Origin: a virus
Taxonomy: Duplodnaviria > Heunggongvirae > Uroviricota > Caudoviricetes
Length of the DNA stretch: 35,219 bases
Virus record (IMG/VR): IMGVR_UViG_2548876867_000017
Span: 1-35,219 of that record
Direction: 5' to 3' (one strand)
Positions 1-33,507 of the stretch are shown here, one piece after another. Position 1 is the stretch's first letter. Each line of letters opens with the position of its first letter. The translations under genes and the position numbers were made by a program. Below the pieces are notes generated by a model. It had not been told where the DNA came from. It did no database searches and saw only the letters and a list, made by a program, of their open reading frames with translations.

Positions 1-273
1 ATGAACATCGGCAAAGCAATCATCAACTACGCAGCACGTCGCAACATGGACATTACCTTGATTGGCGATGAGACCGTAGCGTTCTGGGAAGCGGATAACG
101 ATTGTGAATGGATGTTCTCCTACATGATTGGTAATGATGGTTTCCTCCACTTTAAAGGCAATGTGTATCTGCCGCAGGAGATTAAAGAAGAATTACCGGC
201 GTGCATCGATACAGACAAGAAGCTGAAAGAAGTAATCAACTTTATCGCTAAAGAGTTTATCAGCAAGAAGTAA
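1..273 (+). CDS. hypothetical protein (may be 5-prime truncated by window edge)
   Basis: ORF of 90 aa beginning at window position 1; no recognisable motif; co-oriented with downstream small genes. Confidence 0.45.
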   Translation: MNIGKAIINYAARRNMDITLIGDETVAFWEADNDCEWMFSYMIGNDGFLHFKGNVYLPQEIKEELPACIDTDKKLKEVINFIAKEFISKK

Positions 274-285
274 GGCAGCAAAACA

Positions 286-672
286 ATGTTCAATATCATG
301 ATTCGTAAATTTGGTGAGATGACTTTCGAGAAAGCTGGTGTTGCACGTACAGAAGAAGAAGCAATGGCCTTAGTTCTGGTAGCACTGAGATCATCACCTG
401 AGATTATCGACGCTGAATATGTTGCGGCTGAGGGTGAGATTAAAGAGATTAAAGCGGTGGCTAAGGAATTAGGTGTTAAAGGTTTCCGTAAGCTGAAACT
501 ATCCCGCGAGACTTATGTCATTGGACAGCAAGGACAATACCTAGATGAGAATAGCGCGATTGTCCTACTGAATAAGATCACCCGCTATGGTTTCCAGATT
601 GAGCAATATAAAACGTGTTTCGAATTATACGAAAAAGGTTTGCTGGATACTCTGACCATCGTTCGCGCTTAA
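286..672 (+). CDS. hypothetical protein
   Basis: 128 aa ORF, ATG 13 nt after upstream stop, followed by hairpin plus T-run terminator at 687-712. Confidence 0.55.
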   Translation: MFNIMIRKFGEMTFEKAGVARTEEEAMALVLVALRSSPEIIDAEYVAAEGEIKEIKAVAKELGVKGFRKLKLSRETYVIGQQGQYLDENSAIVLLNKITRYGFQIEQYKTCFELYEKGLLDTLTIVRA

Positions 673-686
673 TTAATTTCTAATTT

Positions 687-712
687 GGTGGGTGCAATTC
701 CCACCGCTTTTT
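687..712 (+). terminator. rho-independent terminator
   Basis: GGTGGG-7nt loop-CCCACC stem followed by GCTTTTT, directly after stop of 286..672. Confidence 0.6.
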
Positions 713-729
713 AAACTGGAGAATCAAAC

Positions 730-810
730 ATGTTAGCTTTTATCTCATTCGTGGGAGGTAGTCTCACAACTATGATCAGCCTTTCTTATATTGTCGTTAG
801 TATGGGGTGA
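730..810 (+). CDS. small hydrophobic peptide (26 aa), putative membrane peptide
   Basis: ATG preceded by GGAG about 9 nt upstream; translation MLAFISFVGGSLTTMISLSYIVVSMG is one hydrophobic helix; below the 60 aa cutoff of the ORF track. Confidence 0.3.
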   Translation: MLAFISFVGGSLTTMISLSYIVVSMG

Positions 811-813
811 GCA

Positions 814-939
814 ATGAAACAATTTCATGATGGCATTTCATCTAAGACATTCAAGAAAGAATATAGCGGATTGTGTATTAACTGGATTGATTTGATTGGT
901 GCGGTTGTGTTTGGTCTGGTAATCAGCATCAACTTTTAA
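814..939 (+). CDS. small membrane protein (41 aa)
   Basis: ATG preceded by GGGGTGAG; C-terminal hydrophobic segment WIDLIGAVVFGLVISINF; 3 nt after the previous small ORF. Confidence 0.35.
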   Translation: MKQFHDGISSKTFKKEYSGLCINWIDLIGAVVFGLVISINF

Positions 940-980
940 CGATATAAATATATCGTAATTCATTCAAAGAGGATTCAATT

Positions 981-1322
981 ATGAAAAAGACTATCTACGC
1001 AATTATTGTTTCTGTGTGTGTTGGTGGCATCGGTGGATTTGTTTGTGGGTATGACTATTCCGATACTCAACATCAAGAGACTATCCGGTCAAATAAGGCC
1101 GAGATTAAGGATCTGAATCAGGAGATTAGCCAGTTAGAAAATGCTCTCTCACTCAAAGATAGTGAATATAGCGAGGTTTATGCAGATAAACAAAAATATT
1201 GGAAAGAGAAAGATAATCTCGTTGTTTACGGGATGAAATTGTGTAAGAGCATGAAGGATGAGCGCAGTTGCTTAATGGAACTTGCCCTTAAAGGTAACGT
1301 GACCATCGACTTCAAAGACTAA
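981..1322 (+). CDS. membrane-anchored coiled-coil protein (signal-anchor or spanin-like architecture)
   Basis: RBS AAGAGGA upstream of ATG; N-terminal hydrophobic segment then heptad-like charged region. Confidence 0.55.
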   Translation: MKKTIYAIIVSVCVGGIGGFVCGYDYSDTQHQETIRSNKAEIKDLNQEISQLENALSLKDSEYSEVYADKQKYWKEKDNLVVYGMKLCKSMKDERSCLMELALKGNVTIDFKD

Positions 1323-1353
1323 TTAAATTCTAATAATAAGAGGAAATTCCATT

Positions 1354-1599
1354 ATGAAAAAGATTATCGCTGGTGTTGTTCTTGCTCTGGGTTTGGTTGG
1401 TGCTGCAAGTGCCGAACAATATGTACAGGGTGATAGTGTCAAGCGTGCTGCCGTTGCACCTTCTTTAAATCAACTGTGTACTGAATTAGCACAGGTTGCC
1501 GGAGTTGGTGACGATGACGACTTTATTACTGCGTGTGTATGGAGTCATATCGAGGATATTAATAAACGTGATGCAAAACTAACTGGAAAGAAATATTAA
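1354..1599 (+). CDS. small secreted protein with cleavable signal peptide
   Basis: RBS AAGAGGA; N-terminus MKKIIAGVVLALGLVGAASA-EQ fits a signal peptidase I signal; no lipobox cysteine; two Cys in mature part. Confidence 0.55.
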   Translation: MKKIIAGVVLALGLVGAASAEQYVQGDSVKRAAVAPSLNQLCTELAQVAGVGDDDDFITACVWSHIEDINKRDAKLTGKKY

Positions 1600-1615
1600 T
1601 GACTTACTAACCAAT

Positions 1616-1651
1616 GCCCCTATCGTTATAATACACGGTAGGGGCGTTTTT
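1616..1651 (+). terminator. rho-independent terminator (loop contains TATAAT-like hexamer)
   Basis: GCCCCTA..TAGGGGC stem followed by GTTTTT after the 1354..1599 stop; loop TTATAATACA could double as a -10 element for the recombinase gene. Confidence 0.5.
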
Positions 1652-1664
1652 GTTTGGAAATGGT

Positions 1665-3344
1665 ATGAAAACTAAACTGTATTCGTATATTCGCTTCTCA
1701 TCTATGCGTCAGAATGATGGTTCGAGTTATGAACGGCAAATCAGGATGGCGAGAGAGGTTGCGGCAAAGTATGACCTTGAACTGGTAAATGATTATCAGG
1801 ATCTGGGTGTATCTGCGTTTAAGGGTGCTAACTCTAAAACAGGGGCGCTATCTCGTTTCCTTGATGCAATTGGTAGATCCGTTCCTGTTGGTAGCTGGCT
1901 ATTCATTGAAAACTTGGACCGTTTATCCCGTGCCGATATTGTCAGTGCGCAGGAGTTATTCCTTTCAATAATCCGTAGGGGGATAACCATTGTTACTGGC
2001 ATGGATAACAAGATCTACTCGCTGGATACTGTTACCGCTAACCCGATGGACCTGATGTTCTCCATCCTTTTATTCATCCGTGGTAATGAGGAAAGCCAGA
2101 CTAAGCGCAATCGTACTAACTCAAGCGCACTGATTAAGATTAAAGCCCATCAAGAAAATCCCCAGAATCCGGCAGTGGCAATCGAGGAAGTTGGAAAGAA
2201 TATGTGGTGGACTGATACCACTTCCGGTTATGTGCTGCCTCATCCGGTGTACTTCCCTGTTGTTCAGGAGATTGTGGAATTGCGGAAGAATGGACGTTCA
2301 ACCGCCGAAATACTGGATCACCTTAACGAGACTTATACACCGCCACCAGCGGTTAGCAACAAGAAGCATTCAAAATGGTCACGGGCAATGGTTGAAAGGT
2401 TGTTCCATACCCGCGCTTTGATTGGTATCAAGGAAGTCTCTGTAGATGGTGTTAATTATGAGTTAAAGGATTATTACCCTCGTGTTATTGATGATGCTAC
2501 GTTCTATCACCTTAAGAAAAATATTGGTGCTAGAGCATGGAACTTTGGAGACAAGGAAGAAGTTAAACCGATCCCCCTGCTTAGTGGTATTGGCCTATTG
2601 AAATGTGATCATTGCGGTTGCGCTATGGTTAAAGTGAAGGGAACGAACAAACGTTCTGACCAGTATCGTTATACATGTGATGCGACCCGTTCACGTAGAC
2701 TTGATTGTGAGCATCCAAACTGGAGTTTTCGAGGCGACCAATTAGAGAAAGCTGTATTGCAATTGCTGGCTGATAAAATCTGGATTGCTGAGGACAAGGC
2801 TAATCCGGTTCCGGCGTTGAAAGTACAGGTTGATGAAATATCACGCAAGATTGATAACCTGATTGCCCTTTCTGCTATGACAGGAGCAACGAAGGAGTTA
2901 GCCGATCAGATTACTACCCTCAATAGCGAGCGTGAAACACTCTACAATCAGATCAAGATGGCAGAAGAGGAAATGTATTCTGTGGACTCTCAAGGCTGGG
3001 AGAAGCTCGCAGAATTTGATTTAGAAGATGTTTATAACGAGGAACGACTAAAGGTCCGGTTTAAGATTAAGCAAGCTCTAAAGCGGATCGGGTGTAGCAG
3101 GATTGACAGAAACAAAAACTTGTTTGTACTGGAATACATCGATGGAAAAACCCAGAGAGTTGTAATAGAAAATTCAAGAGGAACGAGGAAAGGCCGGATC
3201 TTCATTGATTTGAAAACTATCAATGATAGGCAGATTCTGGAGAGCAACGGGCTTGTTCTGCATCCATGTTTAGACATGCTGACAGATAAGAACTGGAAAC
3301 CAGAAGAGGAAATACCAGGTCCATTACAGGAATTTGGAATTTAA
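1665..3344 (+). CDS. large serine recombinase (integrase/resolvase family)
   Basis: N-terminal catalytic motif YSYIRFSSMRQ with conserved Ser, DRLSR motif, Cys-rich zinc-ribbon segment (CDHCGC..CDATRSRRLDCEH), C-terminal coiled coil; start moved from TTG 1650 to ATG 1665. Confidence 0.85.
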   Translation: MKTKLYSYIRFSSMRQNDGSSYERQIRMAREVAAKYDLELVNDYQDLGVSAFKGANSKTGALSRFLDAIGRSVPVGSWLFIENLDRLSRADIVSAQELFLSIIRRGITIVTGMDNKIYSLDTVTANPMDLMFSILLFIRGNEESQTKRNRTNSSALIKIKAHQENPQNPAVAIEEVGKNMWWTDTTSGYVLPHPVYFPVVQEIVELRKNGRSTAEILDHLNETYTPPPAVSNKKHSKWSRAMVERLFHTRALIGIKEVSVDGVNYELKDYYPRVIDDATFYHLKKNIGARAWNFGDKEEVKPIPLLSGIGLLKCDHCGCAMVKVKGTNKRSDQYRYTCDATRSRRLDCEHPNWSFRGDQLEKAVLQLLADKIWIAEDKANPVPALKVQVDEISRKIDNLIALSAMTGATKELADQITTLNSERETLYNQIKMAEEEMYSVDSQGWEKLAEFDLEDVYNEERLKVRFKIKQALKRIGCSRIDRNKNLFVLEYIDGKTQRVVIENSRGTRKGRIFIDLKTINDRQILESNGLVLHPCLDMLTDKNWKPEEEIPGPLQEFGI

Positions 3345-3382
3345 GCGGCCTAAATCGACGTATAACGAGCTAAAACAGTTAA

Positions 3383-3405
3383 GGGGTACATCCGTACCCC
3401 TTTTT
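3383..3405. terminator. hairpin terminator between convergent genes
   Basis: GGGGTAC-ATCC-GTACCCC perfect hairpin followed by TTTTT on plus strand, between recombinase stop and stop of 3418..4416. Confidence 0.6.
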
Positions 3406-3417
3406 AATTTAATTGTA

Positions 3418-4416
3418 TTAAAGAGCCTCTAAAGGGCTTAAATCGAGTTCTAAGTCTTCCGGTGTTAAATCAGCTAACGGTGCATTCATCCACTGCGATA
3501 AATCTCGTTCTATGTCTTCATCACTAATGTAGTTGTTCAGATTGATTGCGTTGGTATCATCAAAATACATTGGCTTAGATGGGTTGGTGTGGATGTATTC
3601 ATTGATGAATGATTTAACATCTTTCAGCTTGCTAATCGGTAGCGTTTCTGTGAATCCGCTATTCATTACCTTACGTGGGATTTTCTTGCCCTGAATATTC
3701 TTTTTAATCCCCATTTCTAAATCACCAGCTTTCCATCCAATGTTAAACAAATGTGAGCATTCAAAGGTGATTTTCTCGCTGGTGTGCTTCTGGTGTTCTC
3801 TTACCCGTTGCATCGGATCTTTGCGAGTGGTAATTCCATATTTGAAAAACTTCTCGCCAACACGAATTAGATAAAAGTGCATAGGGCGCTGTGCAAACTT
3901 GTTTCTGATAACCTGTTTTCTACCATTCTGAATTGATTTAAGTACACCCCTAACCAAAGGGCATGTTAACCCGCCTTGTCTGCGGTTATTGTGTAAATCA
4001 CCTTTCTTGTGAATCTTTCCGTGGCACTTACAACGAAGAATTAGTTTAGTGTCAACACCCTGATAAGGTTCAGCCAGACCTAACACATCCCACCCTATCG
4101 GCTTGTAGAACTTGCGAGCGTTTTCTAAGTGTTCTTCTTCGGTAAATCTAAACTTCTTCTTAGGCGGTGATACTCTATCTTTGCCAGTAAACTGACCAGT
4201 TAGAACATGACTAATACATGGCGTTTTAACCTTTCCGTTAACTTCTATGCAAACTTTGGTGTTCTGGAATGGTTTCTTTACAGGAAGCACAAAACCACTG
4301 TATAACCACCCATGCACTTGACAAACTTTAATGATTCTGGTTTCATATTCGACCGGAGGGGTCGCACGTTTGCTTTTTGCGGTAAATTCGATATCCTTTG
4401 CTAAAGTAGTATTCAT
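3418..4416 (-). CDS. putative homing endonuclease-like protein with GIY-YIG-related (T5orf172-like) motif
   Basis: Internal segment HFYLIRVGEKFFKYGITTRKDPMQRVREH resembles the T5orf172/GIY-YIG-like signature; Cys/His cluster CKCHGKIHKKGDLH; RBS GAGGA upstream. Confidence 0.45.
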   Translation of the reverse strand: MNTTLAKDIEFTAKSKRATPPVEYETRIIKVCQVHGWLYSGFVLPVKKPFQNTKVCIEVNGKVKTPCISHVLTGQFTGKDRVSPPKKKFRFTEEEHLENARKFYKPIGWDVLGLAEPYQGVDTKLILRCKCHGKIHKKGDLHNNRRQGGLTCPLVRGVLKSIQNGRKQVIRNKFAQRPMHFYLIRVGEKFFKYGITTRKDPMQRVREHQKHTSEKITFECSHLFNIGWKAGDLEMGIKKNIQGKKIPRKVMNSGFTETLPISKLKDVKSFINEYIHTNPSKPMYFDDTNAINLNNYISDEDIERDLSQWMNAPLADLTPEDLELDLSPLEAL

Positions 4417-4462
4417 AGTAGTGAATCCTCAATAAAATAATATTCACTACTATTTATAAGAA

Positions 4463-4834
4463 TTAATTATTGTAGTTTTGGAAACCAGTAAGATCACAAA
4501 ATGAATCAGTGTCATGTGCTGGGGAACGGTGTTCTGCCTCATCCGAGAAAATGTTGGCAACCGGAGATTCCACTTTAACTTCCGGTGCTTCTTCAACATC
4601 TGACTTGACTTCTTCGACCACTGGTTCAACTGCTGGAGATTCTTCTTTTGCTTCTTCAATGACGATCTCAGGTTCTTTCATTGCTTCAACCAGAGACGGA
4701 TCAACTTCGTCGAATACCACTTTATCATCTGCGGTGTATTTGTCTATAATGAAAAAATGGTCAGAAATATAGCTAACGTCGCCAGCATATTCTAACAAAA
4801 AAGCGCCCACCAGAGGCGCTTTAATTTTATCCAT
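4463..4834 (-). CDS. hypothetical acidic protein (start uncertain)
   Basis: ORF-track TTG start at 4864 overlaps the upstream gene; ATG at 4834 overlaps the upstream stop (ATGGATAA), consistent with translational coupling; C-terminal half very acidic. Confidence 0.35.
   Translation of the reverse strand: MDKIKAPLVGAFLLEYAGDVSYISDHFFIIDKYTADDKVVFDEVDPSLVEAMKEPEIVIEEAKEESPAVEPVVEEVKSDVEEAPEVKVESPVANIFSDEAEHRSPAHDTDSFCDLTGFQNYNN
4797..4820 (-). terminator. candidate intrinsic terminator or attenuator after peptidase gene
   Basis: AGCGCC-loop-GGCGCT hairpin followed on minus strand by a T-run, just downstream of the 4827 stop; lies inside the next ORF, so may attenuate rather than terminate. 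Confidence 0.35.
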
Positions 4835-5180
4835 TCCACCGTGATTTTTTTGATCTGGAATCAATATGCGTAAAGGTTTTATATTTTCCTAAGCCGTATT
4901 GAGTAGGATATTTCCCATCAAGATAAGCATGAACAATATCAGGCGAGACACCCTTGATAACAATGTCAGCCGCGCGGCCTCGAACGTGATAGCTATTGGC
5001 TGCCCCGCCTACATTCTTGTTATGAGTCGGGCAACGGTTGCCACTGTTAATAATCACTGGTTTACCGAAGTGCTCTCGTACATCCTCAAGAATCACCAGT
5101 AATTCAGCGTCGATTGTATCATAATCACATTTTCCGCATTTACATTTAAATTCCTTGCGAGAAAAATGCTTACTTAACAT
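4827..5180 (-). CDS. peptidase M15-family cell-wall hydrolase (candidate endolysin)
   Basis: Motifs YHVRGRAADI and THID typical of zinc D-Ala-D-Ala carboxypeptidase-like M15 peptidases; RBS AAGGGGG. Confidence 0.6.
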   Translation of the reverse strand: MLSKHFSRKEFKCKCGKCDYDTIDAELLVILEDVREHFGKPVIINSGNRCPTHNKNVGGAANSYHVRGRAADIVIKGVSPDIVHAYLDGKYPTQYGLGKYKTFTHIDSRSKKSRWNG

Positions 5181-5189
5181 ATTACCCCC

Positions 5190-5537
5190 TTAGATCATTT
5201 CGAAGATATAACCAATAAAGCGCATACCCTTGATATAATAAGGAGCAGTGCCTACACACACCGCGCGTGCATCGCCCAGACAGTTAAAGCTATAAGGATT
5301 AACCACATCAACTTCTTGTCCTACACGAAAACGATACTTAGGACGTTTAGCCAATGTAGCGACACAAAACACGGTCCCTTTTTCATGATCGCGGATACAT
5401 TCTTTATATTGTTTATGTTTAACTCTCTTCGCCTCAAAATCATGTGTCATAGATTCTGGGCTAATGCCATTAATAAAAATACCGGAAAGCTGATCGACCG
5501 GATAAGTAGGAAATTCAGTGAAAATATTTTTAGCCAT
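5190..5537 (-). CDS. hypothetical protein
   Basis: 115 aa ORF with RBS GGGGGT; tightly packed in the leftward operon. Confidence 0.55.
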   Translation of the reverse strand: MAKNIFTEFPTYPVDQLSGIFINGISPESMTHDFEAKRVKHKQYKECIRDHEKGTVFCVATLAKRPKYRFRVGQEVDVVNPYSFNCLGDARAVCVGTAPYYIKGMRFIGYIFEMI

Positions 5538-5575
5538 GTTATACCCCCATAAGTTTCTATGAGGGTATTTATGGA

Positions 5576-6259
5576 TTAAACGTATTTCATGCGCGATTTA
5601 ATGTGCTTATTGATGTTTTCAAGCATCATTGCTTCGTTGCTTTCCCACGATCCTAGCGTCGAATAACGAGTAGAAATTTTATCCGATTTAACGGCAACAA
5701 TTCGCTTGCTCTGTTTCTGTATGCGTTTCTCTAAGCGACGTTTTGCCACCGCCGATCCATTCCTAGCGCGTTTGGTTCGGGATTTCTTAGGCTTGTACTT
5801 CTTCATGATAAAAGTCCCTTCCTTGTTCTCTACCTTGATGAAGTTGCCGTTTTCGAGGTTACGCATCATCTTACCGCCTTTGATGGCCTTAATGTTCCCG
5901 TGGGCGTCTAAGACCTTGCCGTTAGCGATTGGAACTAGCTTATTGATTTTGCCACCATCGAAATAGTGTTTCAGATAGTCATCCTGACTGCCGATCTTCT
6001 TGTCCTTATCCCTTGCGCCCTTGATGAAGATTTGGTGTCTCGTCCCTGATCGGTTCTTGTAGTTGGTATTACCTACAGCTTGCTGAGTCCAGCGAGTAGG
6101 TCTATCAACATTCTTGTTAATCTTCTTCTGGAGTGCTCTGGAAGCAAAGATCGCCCCTTCCCCTAGTGCCCTTTCGAATGTATCGGTTGCCTTTTCAGAC
6201 CATTGCCGTAACGCTTTCTTAGTCCTTAGAGCGTTTCGTTTATTGGTACTGGTTGCCAT
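5576..6259 (-). CDS. hypothetical highly basic protein
   Basis: 227 aa, Lys/Arg rich at both ends; RBS AGGGGG; stop abuts the upstream gene. Confidence 0.55.
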   Translation of the reverse strand: MATSTNKRNALRTKKALRQWSEKATDTFERALGEGAIFASRALQKKINKNVDRPTRWTQQAVGNTNYKNRSGTRHQIFIKGARDKDKKIGSQDDYLKHYFDGGKINKLVPIANGKVLDAHGNIKAIKGGKMMRNLENGNFIKVENKEGTFIMKKYKPKKSRTKRARNGSAVAKRRLEKRIQKQSKRIVAVKSDKISTRYSTLGSWESNEAMMLENINKHIKSRMKYV

Positions 6260-6260
6260 G

Positions 6261-6431
6261 TTAGCCCCCTAATAACGAAAAGACCCCCGCCAGTGTCCTT
6301 AGCAATTGTTCATCCACGGTCATAGCCGGGAGTTCAAGCCCAAAGGACGTTAGCAGAGGTCTAATAGCTACGTTATAAGTGAGGGCGACAATCAAGAGAT
6401 AACCAAAATATTTCTTAAGTTTATTCTTCAT
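6261..6431 (-). CDS. small single-pass membrane protein (holin candidate)
   Basis: Start moved to internal ATG at 6431 with RBS AAGGGGTG; 56 aa with one hydrophobic helix. Confidence 0.4.
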   Translation of the reverse strand: MKNKLKKYFGYLLIVALTYNVAIRPLLTSFGLELPAMTVDEQLLRTLAGVFSLLGG

Positions 6432-6450
6432 ATATTCACCCCTTTTATTA

Positions 6451-6729
6451 TTATTTTTGTCTGAGTAAATCGATAACTTGGTCAAATTTAGCGTCCATCG
6501 CAACCACTTTCTTCTCTATACCGTGTAGTGTTTGTTCCATTTGGTAAACACGTTCGGCAATCTGAGTATGGTTATTCTGCATCGTCTCAAACTTCTGGTT
6601 TAACAATGCGTCGCTGGATTCCAATTTAGATAACCTATTTTCTGTTGCTAATTGATTTCGGTGGAGTCTCCAAAGCCCACCGCAAATTAAGGCGATAACA
6701 CCGATACCGCCATATATAATTTCAGTCAT
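6451..6729 (-). CDS. membrane-anchored coiled-coil protein (i-spanin-like or lysis-associated)
   Basis: N-terminal TM segment IIYGGIGVIALICGGLW followed by predicted coiled coil; position next to holin-like and peptidase genes. Confidence 0.4.
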   Translation of the reverse strand: MTEIIYGGIGVIALICGGLWRLHRNQLATENRLSKLESSDALLNQKFETMQNNHTQIAERVYQMEQTLHGIEKKVVAMDAKFDQVIDLLRQK

Positions 6730-6782
6730 TACGCCCCCGATATTTTTATATAGTTTAATGGCAAAATTATTTAGATAAAAAT

Positions 6783-6816
6783 AATCCCGCCTAACTCAAA
6801 AGAATTAAGCGGGATT
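6783..6816 (-). terminator. intrinsic terminator after tail tip gene
   Basis: AATCCCGC..GCGGGATT 8 bp stem followed on minus strand by ATTTTTAT, directly after the 6835 stop. Confidence 0.5.
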
Positions 6817-6834
6817 AATTATTAGAATTAAATT

Positions 6835-9800
6835 TTAAGAAACAGAAATACCAGTCGCGGCTTTCTTAGTTACCATTACCGTTAGATCGCTGATATATGC
6901 ACTTGGGTTATAGTTGTTAACGCCCTTACAGTAAACTTCAAAAGTCATTGTTACTGCCCCGTGTCCGGCTGGCATGTCAATAACTCCACTGTACATACAG
7001 CCAGAAGTTGCAGTGCGATCATATAGAACACCACCATTTTTCTTAACGATTAGTCGGCAAGTATCCCAATGATCGCTACTTTCGCCACGACGAACAGACC
7101 CGTTATGATGAATCGCTGGAATCACTATTTGGCGATCGAATGGATGATCATCTTCGACCCTTACAGTGATTGCACCATCAGGCCAGTTTGGTTGGCGATG
7201 CGGGAAACTCCTACCAACCACTTTCACGAAGTCACCACGCACCTGATTAGCATCAAGCATACCCAAAATGCGGCAACTTGAATTAATCGTTACGTTGTTC
7301 ATTTCGCCGGAATCAGCCACCAAATGACCACGAATATTAGCGTGTCTAAAATGGCAAGTGCCATCTTTGCCAATATACCATCCATCGTTACCATTCCAGT
7401 TATAAGACTGGATATAGTTACCAATTTTAGCATTATCGATAGAGCCATCAATAATATGACCTGTTCCGATCTGTGCGTGCTGGATGTGAGCACCGTTAAT
7501 CTGGGCTGTGCCGATCTTAGCCGTAGTGATACTAGCATCACTAATCTGGGCGGTTCCGATCGCTGCATTACGAATCATTGCATTATCGAGATAAACCTTG
7601 TTATCTTCGATACCAAACGGACAAACTTCTGATCCGTCTTGTGGAGCCACCGCGATTTTATCAGCCGTAAAGATGATTCTCGTCGGTTGTGCTGGATCGT
7701 TGGTTGCGCTCATATGAATACCAGCCACGCGACCATCTGCATTAACTGCCAGATTATATTTGCTGTTAATGGTTCCCTTCAAAGCATCGATTTTTACATC
7801 TGCTTCCTGATTCACACCAGCAATCTTGCCATCCATTTCTACCCGAACTTGATCAATCTTACTTGCGCTTGCTGCCTCACTGGTAGCAATTGCTTGTTTC
7901 AGGGTAGTAGCGGATGCGCTAACTTCTTTGGTGATATCGCCTTTCAGTTCAGCTTTAACCTGATCAATCTTAGTTGCGCTGGCTTGCTCACTGGTAGCAA
8001 TCAGACTCTTGAGAGTATCGGCTGAGGCTTGGACCGTCTGCCCTGTCTCGGTAGTAATCTGTTTATGCATTGCATCAATCTTAGCATCGGCATTAGCGCC
8101 AGCTTGAGCAATAGCATCCGCGATGGTTTCATCTAAGCGATCTTGTAAACCGATCAGGTCTTCCAGTGCTTCTTTGTCCTGATCGTCCCAACTAATGGTA
8201 GATTTCATTTGCATGAAATACGGTTCGGACCAAACAGCATCATCCATACCGAAAATATCGTAGTGAGCACCACGGATATAATAATCACCGTCAGCAATAT
8301 CAAAGGAAGTATGGCTAACACTATTCGTGCTTACTGCCCTTGCATCTGAGAAAGTGTTATCGGTTGCATACTGGATGATTGACCCTGCATAGTCATGTTC
8401 TACGTCATCCGCCCAGCTAACAAACGCAGTATTAAAGCCACCACGCGCACTAAAACCTTTCATTGGCTTATGCTGTGGGTTAATAGCCACTAAACGCGCT
8501 GGGGCGCTTACAGAGTTGTTATAACCCTTAGCGGATACTTCTACCGTCAATTCACGGGAAAGGCCGTTAAACTGGTTCATATCGAGCGTATAGGTCCATG
8601 ATTCAGGATCGCGGGTACGGTACTGAATAGACTTACCAGCCTTGTTAGTTACCTTGATAATGTAGGCTTCAAACAGGTCACTAAACTTGTTAGCTTCATC
8701 GTTGATCATCACATCTAATTGTTGCTGATTGTCCCATTCAATAATCAGATCGTTGCCTTCGAAAGTACCAGGTGAACTACCCTGATTTTTGATTCGAATA
8801 ACCGGAGTCGGCAATTCATAGGTAACAGTAGGATTCTGGTTAACCAGTTCCACCCATTCGGAACGAGCAATAATACCGAAAGCACAAACGCGGTAATCGT
8901 AGGAGCGATCTTTTGCCAGTGCATTGATATTGAAAATTTGCTGTGAAGTCTGTCCCAGCTTAATCCAGTTAGGTGATCCACTCACACGATAATCAATCTG
9001 GAAACCGTAGCGGTTGAAATCTTCCGGTGCATCCCATGTCAAAGTTACGTTTTTACCGTGGATTGTCTCACCAGTTGCCTTAATTCTGAAATTAGTCGGT
9101 TTCTGTACTGTCATTGAATCCGGTAAACCAGTAGGTCTATTGTCTGGAGTCGCCGCATAGTTCAGGTCAGTATAAACCTGAGAATTATATTCTGTGGCGG
9201 TGATCGTCATCATCCCAGCAATACCAGAATCAATAGAACGATCAATTGCAGTAATACGCCAAAGTGAATTATTCAGTTTTAATTCATCATAGGTTACGCT
9301 AATAACATCCCAAACTTCGGCAGTGAATGCGTCAGTAGTCATAAAGCTGATAACCTGAGTGATACGAGATTTATTTCGTTCAATACTCGCGAGTTTATCA
9401 ATCTGGGCTTTAGACTTAACAAAACGATATTCAATATCTTTAGCGATAATTCGACCATCTTGACGAATAGTAGCATCGTTTTCAGCATCAGCCGGATAAC
9501 GTAGCATTTGCTCTGAATAGTCGATTGATGGTTCTTGATACATCGCGTTAATGGTATTGAAATAACCGTTAGTGCCACCTGTTTTCAGTGATACCTTACC
9601 CATCATGATATTGTCTTCATTGAAGGTATGCTTAACAATATCAGGAGCATCCAGTTTCAGAGTAATACGTCCAAAGGATTCGAACATTACCCCGCCGAAA
9701 GTCTGCATAAGACTGGTCAAGTTCTCTTTAAAGCTGGCGTTCGGATCACATGCACCGTTTGAATGTAGGTCCATCTGTCGTACTTGTTTACGTACTTTCA

Positions 9801-10581
9801 GGAATGAATCAACGTTAATGTTTTCAATTGGTACGGATAAGCCATATTTTTCATTTGTTAGGTAGTGGAAAATCTGATCCACGCCGTTAGTGCTAGCCTC
9901 AATAGCATTGGTTTCGAGGTTACGGATTTTTAAGCCCATAACATCTACTGCCACTTGGCTATTTGGCTGGAGAATATCAACACCAGCAGCCAAAGATTTA
10001 TCGTCACGACGTAACACAATACACATGGTTGCAATGCCGTTACCCTGATACCGATCATCCCAATCAGCGCCCAAATGATGTTTAGCTAAATCCAATGCGG
10101 TGTTAGGATTTTTACCAGTGCGAAACTCGACTTCTAAAACTTTGCGATACTCGTCTTTAATGTTTCCTTTATCGAGAATGCCATCACGAATTGTCATATT
10201 CTGGCTAATGAGAACGTTTTTATTATCGATGTGCAGTGCTTTAAAGTGATCGATCTCACCTTCGGCAATAGCAAAAATTTGTACCAGTTTGTTATTTTCA
10301 CGCTGTGAAATTGCTTTGTAAACGCAGATTGCACCCGTGCGGGTAGTACCGAAAAGAACGGGTAATACTGTCTTAGGATCGTTTGATGTTCCTAGTGTCA
10401 CCGCATTATCTGGGCTTTGTACTTTCGGTGTTTTTGGTGCGCCTACAGTGGAAGCGATCAAGGTCATTGCACCAGCAGCCATACCGATAGCGACTGCGGT
10501 CATAACAGAAAATGTTGCGGCTGCCGCCATCCCCGCCGAAGCACCAGCGATCACCGCGCCTACCAATACTTCAAATCCCAT
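6835..10581 (-). CDS. central tail fiber / host specificity protein (lambda gpJ-like) with gpI-like N-terminal segment
   Basis: 1248 aa; C-terminus (DDHPFDRQIVIPAI, VIDMPAGHGAVTMTFEV, ends ATGISVS) matches the lambda J receptor-binding domain as I recall it; N-terminal Gly/Ala hydrophobic stretch plus LPVLFG resembles gpI C-terminus; TAATG overlap with upstream gene. Confidence 0.8.
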   Translation of the reverse strand: MGFEVLVGAVIAGASAGMAAAATFSVMTAVAIGMAAGAMTLIASTVGAPKTPKVQSPDNAVTLGTSNDPKTVLPVLFGTTRTGAICVYKAISQRENNKLVQIFAIAEGEIDHFKALHIDNKNVLISQNMTIRDGILDKGNIKDEYRKVLEVEFRTGKNPNTALDLAKHHLGADWDDRYQGNGIATMCIVLRRDDKSLAAGVDILQPNSQVAVDVMGLKIRNLETNAIEASTNGVDQIFHYLTNEKYGLSVPIENINVDSFLKVRKQVRQMDLHSNGACDPNASFKENLTSLMQTFGGVMFESFGRITLKLDAPDIVKHTFNEDNIMMGKVSLKTGGTNGYFNTINAMYQEPSIDYSEQMLRYPADAENDATIRQDGRIIAKDIEYRFVKSKAQIDKLASIERNKSRITQVISFMTTDAFTAEVWDVISVTYDELKLNNSLWRITAIDRSIDSGIAGMMTITATEYNSQVYTDLNYAATPDNRPTGLPDSMTVQKPTNFRIKATGETIHGKNVTLTWDAPEDFNRYGFQIDYRVSGSPNWIKLGQTSQQIFNINALAKDRSYDYRVCAFGIIARSEWVELVNQNPTVTYELPTPVIRIKNQGSSPGTFEGNDLIIEWDNQQQLDVMINDEANKFSDLFEAYIIKVTNKAGKSIQYRTRDPESWTYTLDMNQFNGLSRELTVEVSAKGYNNSVSAPARLVAINPQHKPMKGFSARGGFNTAFVSWADDVEHDYAGSIIQYATDNTFSDARAVSTNSVSHTSFDIADGDYYIRGAHYDIFGMDDAVWSEPYFMQMKSTISWDDQDKEALEDLIGLQDRLDETIADAIAQAGANADAKIDAMHKQITTETGQTVQASADTLKSLIATSEQASATKIDQVKAELKGDITKEVSASATTLKQAIATSEAASASKIDQVRVEMDGKIAGVNQEADVKIDALKGTINSKYNLAVNADGRVAGIHMSATNDPAQPTRIIFTADKIAVAPQDGSEVCPFGIEDNKVYLDNAMIRNAAIGTAQISDASITTAKIGTAQINGAHIQHAQIGTGHIIDGSIDNAKIGNYIQSYNWNGNDGWYIGKDGTCHFRHANIRGHLVADSGEMNNVTINSSCRILGMLDANQVRGDFVKVVGRSFPHRQPNWPDGAITVRVEDDHPFDRQIVIPAIHHNGSVRRGESSDHWDTCRLIVKKNGGVLYDRTATSGCMYSGVIDMPAGHGAVTMTFEVYCKGVNNYNPSAYISDLTVMVTKKAATGISVS

Positions 10582-11000
10582 TATTCACCCCCGAATCTAT
10601 AAACTTGTTCATAGTCAATGTCTGAAACAGGAATGGTCATCCAGATACCATCTTCTTCAACGAGGCCATAACCGGAATAATGAGGAACTACGGAATAATA
10701 TTTGCGGTTTCCTAATTTGTGGGCTGTGACCAGTAAGTCGCCGTCCTGTAAATCATCAGTGACTAATTTGAAATGTTTCTTAATTGGTTGAAGGATATTT
10801 GAATACCCGCTTAATTCTTTGCAGATTTTCAAGCCTTCTTCTTTAGTTGAATATTTTTTATAAAGAGAATTATATAGGTCAGTACCAGCGAGAATATCGA
10901 TGATCTTACATGCAATTAGATTGCAATCATTCTCGCCTTGAACGAACTCCTGACCTATTAAAGAATTGATGTAATCGGTGATAAGCCTAGTTTTTAGCAT
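10581..11000 (-). CDS. tail assembly protein, NlpC/P60-like (gpK-like)
   Basis: Start moved to ATG 11000 with RBS GGAGGT; Cys motif GENDCNLIACKI and downstream His resemble an NlpC/P60 fold; position just upstream of the J-like gene. Confidence 0.45.
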   Translation of the reverse strand: MLKTRLITDYINSLIGQEFVQGENDCNLIACKIIDILAGTDLYNSLYKKYSTKEEGLKICKELSGYSNILQPIKKHFKLVTDDLQDGDLLVTAHKLGNRKYYSVVPHYSGYGLVEEDGIWMTIPVSDIDYEQVYRFGGE

Positions 11001-11046
11001 GTTGAATACCTCCATGCTGTTATTTACTAGGCTTAGGGAGAAGGGA

Positions 11047-11817
11047 TTATTTCTTGAAGTCTTCGTACATTCTACGAAGGTTGTATTTTGGATGGCCTAA
11101 GCTAACCATGATTTGGCTCAATTTAACTGCGCCAGGTTTGCCGTTTTCAATCCACACACGACGGATTTCATCGTAATGCTGCCAACAGCCTTGACCTTTA
11201 GCAATGCGTATAGAATGTGTATATTTCTTGGTAGAGCTTTCTGGTCGCTTACGCCCTAGATGTGCTTTTCTAATCTTTTCGCGTGTTTCTTCTGATACAG
11301 GTTTACCATAACGGGGGTTATTTTCTCCACGAGAAGCAGCGGATAATTTAGCTAATATTTCTGGGTTGGTTATTTTCTTCCCTTTCATTGCACTAGGTTT
11401 ACCATAGCGATGGTTCTTTTCACCCATTCGAGATGCCGACATTTTAGCTCTAGATTCCGGTGTATGTTTTCTTCCGTAAAAAGGATGATTTTCACCACCA
11501 TCAAAACCACCGACACCACCAGGAGCAATATTAAGACATACACCACGCCCCCATTTTTCGCGTGCTGCCTCCACTAACAGAATTTCACATTCAAACGCTT
11601 CCTCGGCAGTATCAAACAATTTTGAGCGAACAACTTCAAATTCATATATCGGGGTTTCTGATTCTTTATTTTTACGCTTCATCATTTTAATAACTTTACC
11701 CGACCCCACATATCCATCATCTAGATTTGTAGTTGTTCTTTTTCCGACGTAATGATAGATTTTACCAGAGCGATTAGATTTAATAGTGGTGTGATAAACG
11801 TAATGGAATTTTTGCAT
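11047..11817 (-). CDS. GIY-YIG homing endonuclease with NUMOD3-type repeats
   Basis: N-terminal YVYH..GKIYHYVGK GIY-YIG-like motif; repeated NHPFYGRKHTPESRAKMS and NPRYGKPVSEETREKIRKAH modules typical of Seg/I-TevI-type endonucleases. Confidence 0.75.
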   Translation of the reverse strand: MQKFHYVYHTTIKSNRSGKIYHYVGKRTTTNLDDGYVGSGKVIKMMKRKNKESETPIYEFEVVRSKLFDTAEEAFECEILLVEAAREKWGRGVCLNIAPGGVGGFDGGENHPFYGRKHTPESRAKMSASRMGEKNHRYGKPSAMKGKKITNPEILAKLSAASRGENNPRYGKPVSEETREKIRKAHLGRKRPESSTKKYTHSIRIAKGQGCWQHYDEIRRVWIENGKPGAVKLSQIMVSLGHPKYNLRRMYEDFKK

Positions 11818-11891
11818 ATAGGAAAGCCCTCAAAAATAAAGAATCTCTCCTATATTTATTGAGGGCTTTAGTGTGCCATTTAGTTTCAGTA

Positions 11892-12545
11892 TTACTTTTT
11901 AGACGAGTGCCAGCGGCTTTCGCTATTCCACTTCCCGGCACGAGAGAAGAATAGATCGTTCTCGTTTCCGGCATAAGATCGGTGGATACCATCGGAGGCA
12001 TGACTACGAGCGTTTTTATCTAGAACTTCCCAGATACTATTAAGCTGAAATTCTGATTCGTTTTTACACTCATCATCTTCATGTTCGATGTTAATCCCGA
12101 TGGAATCGACTACCCCACGGAAAACAGGGTAAGTGGTTTCAACCTTGCCCGTGTTAGGGTTCAGGAACACCATTTCGATTTTCACATCTGATTTATCGAA
12201 TTGCTTATTACGAATCAGGGTAATGTATTCTTCGCGAACGTTAGAAACGGTTACGTTAATCCCGTTGTTGTTGATCTCCTTCTCTTCGGTATTCGATGAG
12301 ATTTGAAGAAAATCACCCGTTGCAAGATACGTAAATCCGTTATAGTCCAAATCGAAATACCCATCTGTAAGCCGTAGAACGTCCCCTGACGCGGTTACTA
12401 CTTCGATAATGTGAAACATCGATCCAGTGGAGAAAAGCTGCGGTAGAGTCAATCTAGACACATTCTGACCTGTCTGGTCGTTGTATACCTCGATGAAGTC
12501 CAGATTAGTGCATAGTTTGCTGAATGATTCCTGAATAGTTGCCAT
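11892..12545 (-). CDS. minor tail protein
   Basis: 217 aa; start overlaps upstream stop (TAATG); located between tape measure and tip genes. Confidence 0.5.
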   Translation of the reverse strand: MATIQESFSKLCTNLDFIEVYNDQTGQNVSRLTLPQLFSTGSMFHIIEVVTASGDVLRLTDGYFDLDYNGFTYLATGDFLQISSNTEEKEINNNGINVTVSNVREEYITLIRNKQFDKSDVKIEMVFLNPNTGKVETTYPVFRGVVDSIGINIEHEDDECKNESEFQLNSIWEVLDKNARSHASDGIHRSYAGNENDLFFSRAGKWNSESRWHSSKK

Positions 12546-13105: not shown

Positions 13106-13110
13106 AGAAA

Positions 13111-13150
13111 AGCCCCCATAGTTTTATGATTATTTATCACTATGGGGGCT
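13111..13150 (-). promoter_or_regulatory. GC-rich hairpin sequestering the RBS of the downstream tail gene
   Basis: 10 bp stem AGCCCCCATA / TATGGGGGCT with about 20 nt loop between tape measure stop (13156) and next start (13105); the 3-prime arm contains the GGGGG Shine-Dalgarno. Confidence 0.45.
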
Positions 13151-13155
13151 TTTAA

Positions 13156-15585: not shown

Positions 15586-15596
15586 AAATTACCCCT

Positions 15597-15938
15597 TTAA
15601 CCGCTTCTGAGTTTCTCAAGCAAAGATGGATCAAACATGTTCAGCATTGCCGCTTTACGTTCTTCTTCTTTCTTGCGTGCAATTTCTTCCAGTTCTTCTT
15701 TAGTTTTAAAGAGTTTTTCTTCTCTAATTAATTGGAATTGGCTAGGCTTGAGTTTGCGTGCAGTTTCGCGTGTCATTCCTTGCGACGTCATATACATGGA
15801 ATATTGCAACATCGCATTCTGCATATCATGAAACGCGGGGCTTTGTGGTTCTAAGTAGGTGTCGAAAATGTATAACTTCCAAAACAGAGTGATTGGCATA
15901 TTATCCATTTCATCTTTACTAAGCCCCGATCTCATCAT
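15597..15938 (-). CDS. tail assembly chaperone T segment (probably expressed as G-T fusion by -1 frameshift)
   Basis: In -1 frame relative to upstream chaperone ORF; frame is open from 15983; no convincing RBS before its own ATG. Confidence 0.55.
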   Translation of the reverse strand: MMRSGLSKDEMDNMPITLFWKLYIFDTYLEPQSPAFHDMQNAMLQYSMYMTSQGMTRETARKLKPSQFQLIREEKLFKTKEELEEIARKKEEERKAAMLNMFDPSLLEKLRSG

Positions 15939-16829: not shown

Positions 16830-16883
16830 TATTCTTTTCCTTCTATTTTAAACAATAGGGCACATACCCGTAATTCTATTTAT

Positions 16884-17186
16884 TTAGCGGTTGCTCAAAC
16901 GTCTATAACGAAGATGAGCGATCCCTCGATTTGTGCTAACTGTAATTACTGCCCCTTGCGGTGCAATACAAGAATGAATCTGTCCCCAATCATGACCCTT
17001 ATGGCTTCCAGAAACACAAAAACCATGAATAAACAATTCAGAGTCACCACCGCCACCACCGGAAGAATGAGCACAGAATGAAATAGTCCCGAAAGCGTCG
17101 GCTGTCCAACCGTTAGGAATATCAAACCATCCTTGATTTGCTTTACCCGCCCTATTCCCCAAAGCGCCATCTACCCAAAATGCCAT
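16884..17186 (-). CDS. glycine-rich small protein, paralog 3 of a tandem triplet
   Basis: 100 aa; shares WFDIPNGW motif and Gly-rich core with the two upstream ORFs; RBS AGGAG; start overlaps upstream stop. Confidence 0.55.
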   Translation of the reverse strand: MAFWVDGALGNRAGKANQGWFDIPNGWTADAFGTISFCAHSSGGGGGDSELFIHGFCVSGSHKGHDWGQIHSCIAPQGAVITVSTNRGIAHLRYRRLSNR

Positions 17187-29089: not shown

Positions 29090-29176
29090 GTAATTACCCT
29101 CATTACGAAATATGAAGGTATTTATTAAGTTGTTGATTTTTTGATAAATACGGGTATTAAGATTTAAGGGGGTTGT

Positions 29177-30955: not shown

Positions 30956-31044
30956 AGTAAAAATTCCCCTTAAACGGTTTAGTGATTTGGTCCTCCTAGT
31001 TCCGGCAGCATCACCGGAACATTTTTATTTATGATAGAAATTTA

Positions 31045-31497: not shown

Positions 31498-31947
31498 TTA
31501 CAGCATATCTAAGCCTTCATCGTAACCGTAGAAGCCACCGTGAGAAGAGAAAGCGATTGGTGCGTAGTCTTCGTCTTCCTCATCTTGTTCTGGGGCTTCC
31601 TGAGCGGTTTCTTTACCGTAATTAAACATTGCTTCATCCAGTTCACGAAGAGTCAAGAAGCTACCCAGGTCAATGTCACCGGAACGGACTTGAAACGGCA
31701 GATCATCACGAACAATAATTGCTGGAATATCGTTGTATTGAAGACGACCCTCATCAGTAAAACAGTCGATGATCACAGTAGGACGACCATTTCGTTTTAA
31801 AGCGTAGAAAGCAGTTGAGTAGTTGGAGTCTTCGGAATGACGAATGATGTTATAACCACGATGAGCGAAAACTTCTAGCATATGGAAGTTACCATAGTTT
31901 TCAGAGTCCAGACCCAGAAGTACGAAAGGAGTTTTAGTATTGATCAT
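31498..31947 (-). CDS. hypothetical protein with acidic C-terminal region
   Basis: Start moved to ATG 31947 (MINTKTPF) with RBS AGAGGA; conserved upstream box shared with gene 3418..4416. Confidence 0.55.
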   Translation of the reverse strand: MINTKTPFVLLGLDSENYGNFHMLEVFAHRGYNIIRHSEDSNYSTAFYALKRNGRPTVIIDCFTDEGRLQYNDIPAIIVRDDLPFQVRSGDIDLGSFLTLRELDEAMFNYGKETAQEAPEQDEEDEDYAPIAFSSHGGFYGYDEGLDML

Positions 31948-32524
31948 AGTGGTATCCTCTAAAAGAAAGTGAATCAAGTAAGTTCACTATTATTTATAAA
32001 GAGAAAATTCTTGTTATTATGAAAGGTGATTGTATTCAGTCGGGCAAAGCCCTCCTTCATGATTTGATTAAATCATCATCAAAACGAAGAAGTATCTTTA
32101 GAATATAAGAATCTTTCTTTTGGAGAAATAATAATCAGGAAGCAATTTAGCAACCGAAGGTTGCAATCCCGAAGGGATACCAATACCTTTCTAGAAAGTG
32201 ATTGTTACTCACTTCGTTCGTTTACTAGAATCAGTTAGTAACTAGTATTAAATCCCTTTCTAAGAAAATCCTTTCAAAAGCGAGTGAACGCCGTAGGCGT
32301 GAACGTGAGCGAAGCGAACTATCCAATCCCTTTCGAATCCTGCTTGCAGGTCTTAGAAGGTGTTGATGGGCGCTTCGCGCACGGCTACGCCGTATTCTTT
32401 TTGCGAGATCTTTCTTGAACGTAGTGAGAGAAAACGAGCAAAAAGGAGAACGTTAGTTCGAATTTTATATTCTATGGTCTGTGGGGTGAAATGTCTTTCA
32501 AGATCATACGCTTATGAGATTGAA

Positions 32525-32869: not shown

Positions 32870-33211
32870 TTTTCTCATTGGTAGGGGTTGAAATTTTCGA
32901 AACAATCCCCATATTGATGATAAACAAGATTTTTTCGTGTATAAATACATGCATGAAATGATTGTTCACTTCTGAAAATCCCCTGATTCACTGTTAACAC
33001 ACACAGCACTGGTTAAACACACAGTGCTTTTTCGATTGAATAATGTACGAATTGATTAATTATTAATCTTCTCTTTAGCAATTCGTGCTCCCACTGATCA
33101 GATATACAGTGGTTTTGCAGGGTTTTCTGAAATGACTTTTATAAATAGAAGTATCGAGGGCGAAAAGCTCTTTTTATTGTCCTTATTAATCCACATTTGA
33201 GGAATCTACTT

Positions 33212-33461: not shown

Positions 33462-33507
33462 TGAAATGAACAATTAAAACTAACACAGCATTCAGGAGTA
33501 TTTATAA

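Follow-up and report, generated by a model that had tools for sequence, protein, structure and literature searches.

Candidate T4-type late promoters before virion, lysis and nuclease genes of a temperate enterobacterial prophage

The window analysed here, all 35,219 bases of the IMG/VR record IMGVR_UViG_2548876867_000017, is a complete prophage with a G+C content of ~41%, and the feature under study is a short box that lies upstream of two of its leftward genes. Copy 1, TATAAATA at 4451..4458 on the minus strand, stands 34 nucleotides (nt) before the ATG of a gene for a T5orf172/GIY-YIG-like putative nuclease of 332 amino acids (aa; 3418..4416, minus strand) and continues as GTAGTGAAT, the whole reading CTTATAAATAGTAGTGAATATTATTTTATTGAGGATTCACTACT-ATG with the start codon at 4416-4414. 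Copy 2, TATAAATA at 31991..31998 on the minus strand, stands 43 nt before the ATG (31947-31945) of a gene for a 149-aa protein (31498..31947, minus strand), continues as ATAGTGAAC and reads TTTATAAATAATAGTGAACTTACTTGATTCACTTTCTTTTAGAGGATACCACT-ATG. A first-pass annotation of the window had described this recurrence, and the plus-strand sequence TTCACTA[C/T]TATTTATAA is indeed identical at 17 of 18 positions, with AGTGAATC present in both copies as it had stated. The related box that it placed before the terminase gene is AATAAATA at 29119..29126 on the minus strand, 30 nt before the ATG at 29089, and is of the same class. Its suggestion of a phage-specific type of promoter without a good -35 is borne out as well, in that there is no conserved -35 and a sigma-70 consensus scan misses the 4458 box; the box is very probably a promoter element of a class other than ordinary sigma-70. 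That annotation was right to place the box before the two leftward genes, but the box is not special to them, since about a dozen genes or operons are preceded by one, among them the heads of most multi-gene blocks. What it missed is that the box is the T4-type late-promoter consensus.

The prophage itself is unrelated to T4. In E. coli O55:H7 DEC5A, a ~35.3-kb copy of the element splits hicB, and at 90-96% identity the element is found in 62 of 5,426 complete E. coli genomes (~1%), while hosts of the wider family are E. coli, Salmonella, Shigella and Proteus. A serine integrase gene (1650-3344, plus strand) lies at the left, and a lambda-type gpA large terminase gene (27185-29089, minus strand) heads a long minus-strand virion block, which runs through terminase, portal, protease-capsid (HK97-type), tail-tube, tape-measure, tail-tip and tail-fibre genes and ends with an M15 endolysin gene (4827-5180, minus strand). 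The right arm consists of small genes without assigned function. The idea that the window is a T4-like phage was rejected on these grounds: it is a complete hicB prophage with a serine integrase and a lambda-like terminase. Among 50,697 records of a phage collection there is no DNA-level look-alike of the prophage besides T4-like patches, and no isolated phage of its family. Relatives were gathered in three ways. The IMG/VR contigs L053, L084 and L104 were brought in by a scan of viral contigs for TATAAATARTAGTGA, a scan that was rejected as evidence in itself because its hits are mostly chance in AT-rich DNA; L131 (Proteus columbae), L132 (Salmonella) and L133 (a divergent E. coli) came via homologues of a 201-aa protein; and L134-L136 came via homologues of the 332-aa protein. 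Gene order is identical across these nine relatives and the window. No known RNA families were found in the window; ARAGORN calls a 91-nt tRNA-Lys(TTT) at 22301-22391 (plus strand), antisense to the virion gene 22156-22659, which is without an Rfam match and probably false.

Late promoters of T4-like phages have the consensus NATAAATA, without a -35, at -13 to -6 in T4, and the first base of this core varies in RB49, KVP40 and S-PM2, with Aeh1 using CTAAATA (PMC1524935). They are read by the host polymerase with the gp55 sigma factor, gp33 and the gp45 clamp (PMC3014915). In the Krischvirus ECD7, TATAAATA, AATAAATA, GATAAATA or CATAAATA stands 23-60 nt before the ATG of late genes (gp9, gp15, gp18, gp20, gp22, gp23, gp24, inh, uvsW, uvsW.1, gp51 and alt), often right after a terminator, and in its 50-kb late region TATAAATA occurs 8 times on the late strand and 0 times on the other. 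The box sites of the prophage look like these ECD7 sites and have the same spectrum of first-base variants. They precede terminase, tail-tube, tail and lysis-region genes, and 11 of 13 are sense-oriented, as for T4 late promoters. Upstream of the boxes, sequences differ between sites and between relatives, with the short core as the sole conserved determinant. Sequence, placement, conservation and hairpin geometry give good support, short of proof, to the assignment of the box as a late promoter of T4 type. By this assignment, transcription would start ~6 nt after the box, placing the box at -13 to -6, with which the geometry of the hairpins at four genes (below) is consistent; the core would be NATAAATA, extended to TATAAATA-RTAGTGA at the two flagged genes.

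The first-pass annotation had named motif frequency against AT expectation as one check that might refute it. By raw count the outcome is marginal, with the exact 8-mer found 6 times against 2.8 expected, a number reached in 5 of 100 shuffles, and with no enrichment when one mismatch is allowed (51 against 59 expected); by position and orientation, however, it is strong. The 7-mer ATAAATA occurs 13 times in the window on the two strands (6 exact TATAAATA and 7 NATAAATA copies), and all 13 lie in non-coding DNA, which is 10.5% of the window. The 31.7 kb of coding DNA contain it on neither strand, where shuffles of synonymous codons predict 3.2 (9 of 300 give 0), and it is the rarest there among the 21 permutations of A5T2. 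This depletion fits a promoter for which a short box alone suffices. Eleven of the 7-mers are sense-oriented and lie 16-85 nt before a start codon, where 1.2 are expected and none of 2000 dinucleotide shuffles reaches 11; only 2 antisense copies occur within the same upstream stretches. The preference for non-coding DNA recurs in relatives, being 14/14 in the DEC5A copy, 10/10 in L133, 3/3 in L136, 10/12 in L132 and 9/14 in L131. Chance in AT-rich DNA was accordingly rejected through position, orientation and conservation rather than through the raw count.

Taken one by one, the boxes before genes are distributed over both arms and the virion block, and the eleven genes that they precede start or end, by lower coordinate, at 981, 3418, 5190, 11047, 12545, 16359, 27185, 29177, 30125, 31498 and 33212. 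At the left end, TATAAATA at 943..950 (plus strand) lies 30 nt before the gene for a 113-aa membrane-anchored protein (981-1322) and is kept in L003, L004, L005 and L136. The box of the nuclease gene is found before its orthologues as (N)ATAAATA[GA]TAGTGA in L002, L005, L134 and L136, as CTAAATAATAGTGA in L135 and as a CTAAATA variant in one Salmonella copy. On the minus strand of the virion block follow CATAAATA at 5566..5573, before gene 5190-5537 and kept in L135 and L136; AATAAATA at 11853..11860, within a hairpin before a NUMOD3 homing-endonuclease-like gene (11047-11817); GATAAATA at 13131..13138, in the loop of a terminator-like hairpin before gene 12545-13105; and AATAAATA at 16877..16884, 47 nt before the tail-tube gene (16359-16829). 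The NUMOD3 domain is typical of GIY-YIG homing endonucleases, and its gene is embedded among the tail genes. At the head of the virion block, the terminase AATAAATA box is identical in the Proteus, Salmonella and divergent E. coli relatives, that is, in all four lineages, and next to it GATAAATA at 29143..29150 (plus strand) precedes the divergent gene of the 201-aa protein (29177-29782), where relatives have TATAAATA or GATAAATA. Further right, CATAAATA at 31026..31033 (minus strand) precedes a Rha-family gene (30125-30955), and before the 149-aa gene TATAAATA[AC]TAGTG is kept in L053, L084, L104, L131, L132 and L133.

Three more boxes lie in the right arm. TATAAATA at 33140..33147 (plus strand) precedes the gene of a 59-aa protein (33212-33391), with a GC hairpin and T-run directly after it; relatives have TATAAATA or CATAAATA there, then the same GC hairpin and T-run. 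That the hairpin and T-run follow this box (33140-33172) within at most ~10 nt in every lineage (L131-L133) is an odd position for a terminator. TATAAATA at 32940..32947 (plus strand) is followed ~55 nt later by a hairpin and T-run (33004-33032, spotted by eye and not called by the terminator scan), and TATAAATA at 33499..33506 (minus strand) by a terminator at 33462-33433, this box and its terminator both being kept in L053, L084 and L104. The 32940 and 33506 boxes may thus yield short RNAs of ~60-80 nt. A transcript begun at the latter box would run antisense to gene 33508-34503 over its 5′ leader and ribosome-binding site. The surrounding 1.26 kb at 31948-33211 are without a convincing open reading frame (ORF), and ~8 iteron-like GTGTAGGTTT repeats near 32520-32650 may be a replication origin. 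Beyond the exact boxes, the near-variants TCTAAATA and TGTAAATA precede 5 further genes. For the terminase, 201-aa, 149-aa, 59-aa and nuclease genes, homologous sites in E. coli, Salmonella and Proteus have retained the box while their flanks have diverged, and nearly all conserved genes except the integrase gene sit behind a box.

A sigma-70 reading of the same sites is unlikely. It would make the boxes unusual sigma-70 promoters that rely on the -10 alone, and the flagged genes accessory genes expressed in lysogeny. TATAAATA-RT does contain AATAAT or AATAGT, a hexamer in which A falls at -11 and T at -7, and the RT after the box is conserved in the flagged subclass, each flagged gene of which forms a promoter-gene-terminator unit. 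At the 31998 box, the hexamer even lies within ATAACA-17-AATAAT, which matches at 9 of 12 positions, and TAGACA-16-AATAAT can be read there by eye in L053, L104 and L133. Yet the conserved part is NATAAATA and not this shifted hexamer, TATAAA itself has no T at -7, and the bases after most boxes give none either (CC at the terminase box, CG at 29143, TA at 943, GA at 33140 and GA at 16877). The 4458 box has no usable -35, and the sigma-70 consensus scan has no match there or at the other boxes within 1-17500; among all boxes it matches only the one at 31998, and that weakly. Neither the exclusion of the 7-mer from genes nor its use at the head of the virion block is explained by sigma-70 promoters. 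Because TATAAA lacks a T at -7, because no -35 is conserved and because the scan gives only this weak match, NATAAATA is treated here as a separate class.

The element's genuine sigma-70 promoters, by comparison, are of the TATAAT or TTGACA type. The integrase gene has TTACTA-17-TATAAT instead of a box, and this is kept in relatives. A hairpin and T-run at 1613-1648 precede this gene, with the perfect TATAAT in the loop and TTACTA 17 nt upstream; such a promoter-inside-hairpin layout, which is kept in L134-L136, is like that of gene 12545 but with a sigma-70 hexamer. Two further sigma-70 promoters, TTGACA-17-TATGAT (minus strand, 31434-31470) and TTGACA-17-TATACT (plus strand, 32830-32869), each overlap a TTGACAA...TTGTCAA palindrome (31434-31462 and 32841-32869) and look like repressor-controlled early promoters; no gene for a repressor was recognised. 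In the proposed scheme, the integrase gene and these two operator-like promoters would be of ordinary sigma-70 type, and the late class would head the terminase and virion block, several internal virion genes, both nuclease genes and the right arm's small genes. Across window positions 1-17500, sigma-70-like consensus matches are scarcer than in shuffles (30 against 42 +/- 6.7).

At the nuclease gene the box is joined to a hairpin over the translation start. A perfect 12-bp inverted repeat has its 5′ arm, ATAGTAGTGAAT, at 4442..4453 (minus strand), overlapping the last 3 bases of the box, and its 3′ arm, ATTCACTACTAT, at 4415..4426 (minus strand), ending at the AU of the AUG, with the Shine-Dalgarno sequence GAGGA in the 15-nt loop. 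Read-through RNA is predicted to fold with -15.2 kcal/mol (z -3.5), which none of 200 shuffles matches, and only -2.9 is obtained for a transcript beginning 6 nt past the box. Orthologues retain the arrangement in altered form. In L136 the arms are AUAAUAGUGAAU/AUUUACUAUUAU, in which one G-C pair is replaced by A-U and another by G.U and the helix is kept; L134 has a 9+2-bp helix at the same place; and in L135 a stretch upstream of the box pairs with the Shine-Dalgarno sequence, the three folds having z -2.0 to -3.2. Other boxed genes of the window share the design. At the NUMOD3 gene 11047 the box is inside the stem of a strong hairpin that covers the Shine-Dalgarno sequence (-21.7 kcal/mol, z -5.3); at gene 12545 the box is in the loop and the Shine-Dalgarno sequence in the 3′ arm of the terminator-like hairpin (-21.6 kcal/mol, z -5.1); and at gene 5190 the expected start is inside the 5′ arm and the hairpin covers the Shine-Dalgarno sequence (-17.8 kcal/mol, z -4.5). 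In T4 gene e, soc, I-TevI, I-TevII, I-TevIII, segB and Aeh1 mobE, read-through RNA is masked in this manner and late-promoter RNA is translated (PMC2988022, PMC3014915). The start of box-initiated RNA from gene 3418-4416 would likewise fall inside the 5′ arm, so that read-through RNA would be masked and only box-initiated RNA translated, an arrangement that would be that of T4 gene e, I-TevI, segB and mobE.

The GTGAAT/ATTCAC repeat that the first-pass annotation had taken for a possible operator is the centre of this ATAGTAGTGAAT...ATTCACTACTAT repeat, and to us the repeat looks like a translational mask rather than an operator. As an operator it fares poorly at either gene: at 3418-4416 it is part of the 12-bp hairpin, the spacing of its arms is variable and a compensatory change has occurred, and at 31498-31947 relatives have lost the GTGAA/TTCAC pairing and the stability of the fold does not exceed that of shuffled sequence (z -0.8, with +1.0 and -1.0 in relatives); a few bases just past the box do remain complementary to bases ahead of the AUG there. 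We therefore regard as very unlikely, among the readings weighed here, that box and repeat are mainly a protein-binding operator, be it for one of the helix-turn-helix (HTH) paralogues described below or for a nuclease that represses itself in the manner of I-TevI. RTAGTGA does recur right after the box at 3-4 family genes, often with a TCACTA partner nearby, and I-TevI binds an operator that overlaps its own late promoter (PMC2988022). A search for palindromic half-sites of fixed spacing kept in relatives nonetheless found varying spacing, with a loop of ~10 to 15 nt at the nuclease gene, and a 5′ half-site at the 149-aa gene that mutates from GTGAA to GTGTA without compensation, and the G.U pair in L136 points to pairing in RNA; a fixed operator is argued against by all three. 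An operator could still coexist with a promoter and is compatible with the other readings, and some protein may bind the recurring RTAGTGA.

The DNA around copy 1 also bears traces of T4-like phages. An internal fragment of inh from T4-like (Krischvirus) phages, at 95% DNA identity, occupies 4480..4737 (minus strand) and ends 22 nt before the box, and L002 has a longer inh piece (96% identity). Elsewhere in the family, the slot between the endolysin and nuclease genes (window 4417-4834; L002 2600-3700; L005 2500-6100; L134 5450-6000; L135 3700-6000; L136 4800-6000) holds an Inh homologue (Proteus, 50% aa identity), a Hoc fragment (58% aa) or a full UvsW homologue (73-80% aa), the last accompanied by a small T5orf172-like nuclease; hoc, inh and uvsW are neighbours in ECD7. 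Farther into the virion block, 16869-20377 (~16.9-20.4 kb) has 83-94.5% DNA identity with the distal long-tail-fibre (gp37) region of T4-like phages (e.g. Krischvirus KFS-EC); the patch takes in three genes of ~100 aa each and a large part of the tail-fibre gene 17829-21239. A Gp34_trimer domain is present in the tail-fibre protein of L133. Behind the tail-tube gene, the terminator (16322-16350) is identical at 29 of 29 positions to one after hoc in the ECD7 record (L130, 32956-32984), and window 32063-32137 is ~80% identical to an intergenic element that ECD7 carries twice (L130, 31530-31602 and 31679-31753).

Exactly one phage record has a related virion module, PQ671644 ('DCP80'; L137-L139), whose terminase protein is 44% identical and whose synteny with the prophage extends over 22 kb. 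Its module is siphovirus-like and full of TATAAATA boxes, with 12 of 12 ATAAATA copies on the coding strand. PQ671644 bears the label of a complete Gaprivervirus genome, and it also holds duplicated rIIA and gp46/47, its own gp23 and gp18, and scrambled T4-like segments. A true hybrid phage was rejected on account of the duplicated and scrambled T4 genes and the T4 virion genes; the record most likely joins two phages of one lysate in assembly.

The nuclease gene itself is, by its distribution in the family, an old and fixed member of it. The 332-aa protein matches PHROG 681 'endonuclease' (E 4e-20), and in tblastn it is distantly similar (24-35% identity) to T5 ORF172-type and Krischvirus proteins; there is no Pfam or NCBIfam hit past threshold. 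Its C-terminus is an acidic, leucine-rich tail, EDLELDLSPLEAL. Orthologues of 48-85% identity occur in E. coli, Salmonella and Proteus at the same position between integrase and lysis genes. Some E. coli copies are without the gene, apparently by deletion, and in L003 and L004 the cassette seems to have been deleted to leave a 65-aa fusion ORF. That the nuclease cassette and its promoter are a recent T4-like import was rejected, since the gene is old and conserved even though the adjoining inh piece is recent. Krischvirus homologues of the nuclease were examined for the same box and do not have it, JK32 being without a box and Whisky having a sigma-70-type early promoter. A terminator after the endolysin gene (4800..4822, minus strand) lies upstream of the cassette and should limit read-through, and a bidirectional hairpin terminator between the nuclease and integrase genes (3381..3402) closes it. 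The second flagged gene presents a different picture. Its 149-aa product is modelled as a small alpha/beta domain with a disordered acidic tail, in which the motif DYAPIxFSS...GLDML is invariant, and its family forms 76 clusters at 90% identity, mostly of E. coli and Shigella, far more diverse than its neighbours.

Which factor would read the boxes is the question on which the interpretation turns. Our first-ranked answer, offered tentatively and as somewhat less than an even chance, is that the reader is host RNA polymerase with the gp55, together with the gp33 and gp45 clamp, of a superinfecting T4-like phage. The boxed genes would then fire once such a phage reaches its late phase, for defence, escape of the element, or both. 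This answer is ranked first because no gp55 homologue was detected in the prophage, because nearly all of its conserved genes are boxed, because T4-like exchange has been repeated and recent, and because no isolated phage of the family is known from the collection. Among the ~25 proteins scanned (several small virion-block genes were left out), there were likewise no sigma-factor hits in PHROG, Pfam or NCBIfam, and the models of the 201-aa and 149-aa proteins show no sigma-like or gp33-like fold.

It is quite possible, though in our view somewhat less likely, that the late-type NATAAATA boxes are read by the prophage's own unrecognised sigma-like protein or activator. The element would then be an autonomous temperate phage that has T4-like late promoters by descent or convergence, and its gene set is complete for independence (integrase, terminase, portal, capsid, tail and lysis). 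Candidates for such a factor are the HTH paralogues of 59 and 201 aa, the acidic 149-aa protein, and proteins of 74-77 and ~320 aa. The HTH paralogues, which the first-pass annotation had rightly listed as present, are conserved throughout the family; the 59-aa protein is paralogous to each half of the 201-aa protein (BLASTP E 2e-6 and 0.003). Moreover, many genes are without assigned function, and the 59-aa gene lies downstream of one of the two sigma-70-type early promoters with palindromes (31434-31462 and 32841-32869). Set against this, no gp55 homologue was found and the 201-aa and 149-aa models match no solved sigma factor or activator; the 201-aa protein was rejected as a hidden sigma factor, its model (predicted local distance difference test score 71) being without a significant match among solved structures, and the 149-aa protein was rejected as a gp33-like or known defence protein for want of a structural or family match. 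An own factor would also have to start its own synthesis, as nearly all conserved genes except the integrase gene are boxed, and the Rha and 110-aa genes that do lie behind a sigma-70 promoter are missing from the Proteus relative. Finally, it gives no account of why DNA of T4 hoc, inh and uvsW has been captured repeatedly.

Several points weigh against gp55 of a superinfecting phage as the reader, and against the promoter assignment beneath it. That the boxes function as promoters is itself read out of the sequence, and the depletion of the 7-mer from coding DNA is modest, being equalled in ~3% of shuffles. The absence of a gp55 homologue comes from a tblastn search of ECD7 gp55 against the window (best E 0.08), and gp33 was not compared. 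The element looks like a complete temperate phage that might supply a late factor itself: it has genes for integrase, virion and lysis, along with sigma-70 promoters with palindromes, and of its genes ~40% are without recognisable function, only two having been modelled. The DCP80 record may stem simply from a contaminated lysate. Infection by T4-like phages, moreover, usually silences or degrades the host's DNA, an obstacle to expression from a prophage, and tail-fibre exchange between unrelated phages is common and no proof of dependence. On the matter of host DNA, Krischvirus DNA contains ordinary, unmodified cytosine, and during infection by such a phage the prophage could remain open to late transcription.

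Late promoters of the T4 type have been regarded as exclusive to those T4-like phages that encode gp55. If the boxes are what they seem, there are two possibilities: either a second, unrecognised way exists of directing E. coli RNA polymerase to NATAAATA, or a prophage already in the cell takes its cue from the transcription programme of an invading virulent phage, which would be a new route for anti-phage defence or for exploitation of the invader. The latter could explain the trade of tail-fibre and head genes between prophage and T4-like genomes. Going further, we put forward as a speculative proposal, less likely than not, that the family has placed its virion, lysis and nuclease genes under the control of the late sigma factor that virulent T4-like phages make, so that these genes stay silent until the late phase. 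If it holds, the element would use the invader's transcription machinery, and perhaps also its recombination-driven replication by way of the captured hoc, inh, uvsW and gp37 homology; the outcome would be cutting of invader DNA, early lysis or packaging of the element itself, making it a temperate parasite or predator of T4-like phages. Our literature searches found no prophage or satellite with T4-type late promoters, no system with a T4-like helper and no such relationship to the T4 group. What appears to be new, then, is the genome in which they occur: the promoter type and the hairpin control are both known already, but were not expected in an element of this kind.

Compared with known systems, the closest likeness is to the T4-type late promoters of the Straboviridae (T4, RB49, ECD7), which have in common with the prophage boxes the 8-bp core, the variable first base, the CTAAATA variant and the lack of a -35, and which likewise stand before virion and lysis genes, 23-77 nt from the start codon and often after a terminator. 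Unlike in the Straboviridae, the boxes here lie in a 35-kb temperate, integrase-bearing element with a lambda-like gpA terminase, an HK97-type capsid and no detectable gp55 gene. With the late-promoter and hairpin control of T4, the prophage shares a promoter in or at the 5′ arm, a 3′ arm over the ribosome-binding site or AUG, and an association with homing-endonuclease-type genes. In contrast to T4, read-through RNA would come from the prophage's virion and lysis block and not from early or middle transcription units, and the hairpin at the 149-aa gene is not significant. The 332-aa product also recalls the free-standing T5orf172/GIY-YIG-like homing endonucleases of T5 and T4-like phages, to which it is distantly similar, with a late-type promoter and a position beside a truncated inh; unlike those, its gene is at a fixed position in the family and is not a sporadic insert. 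Satellites offer a last comparison, namely P4 with its helper P2 (cross-activation through Ogr/Delta), PLE with ICP1, and the phage-inducible chromosomal islands (PICIs) with their helpers. These differ from the prophage in being without a full virion set and in using activator-dependent sigma-70 promoters, and helper dependence is here an analogy. The analogy is to an integrated element that heeds another phage's factor and, as here, carries nucleases and helper-derived genes.

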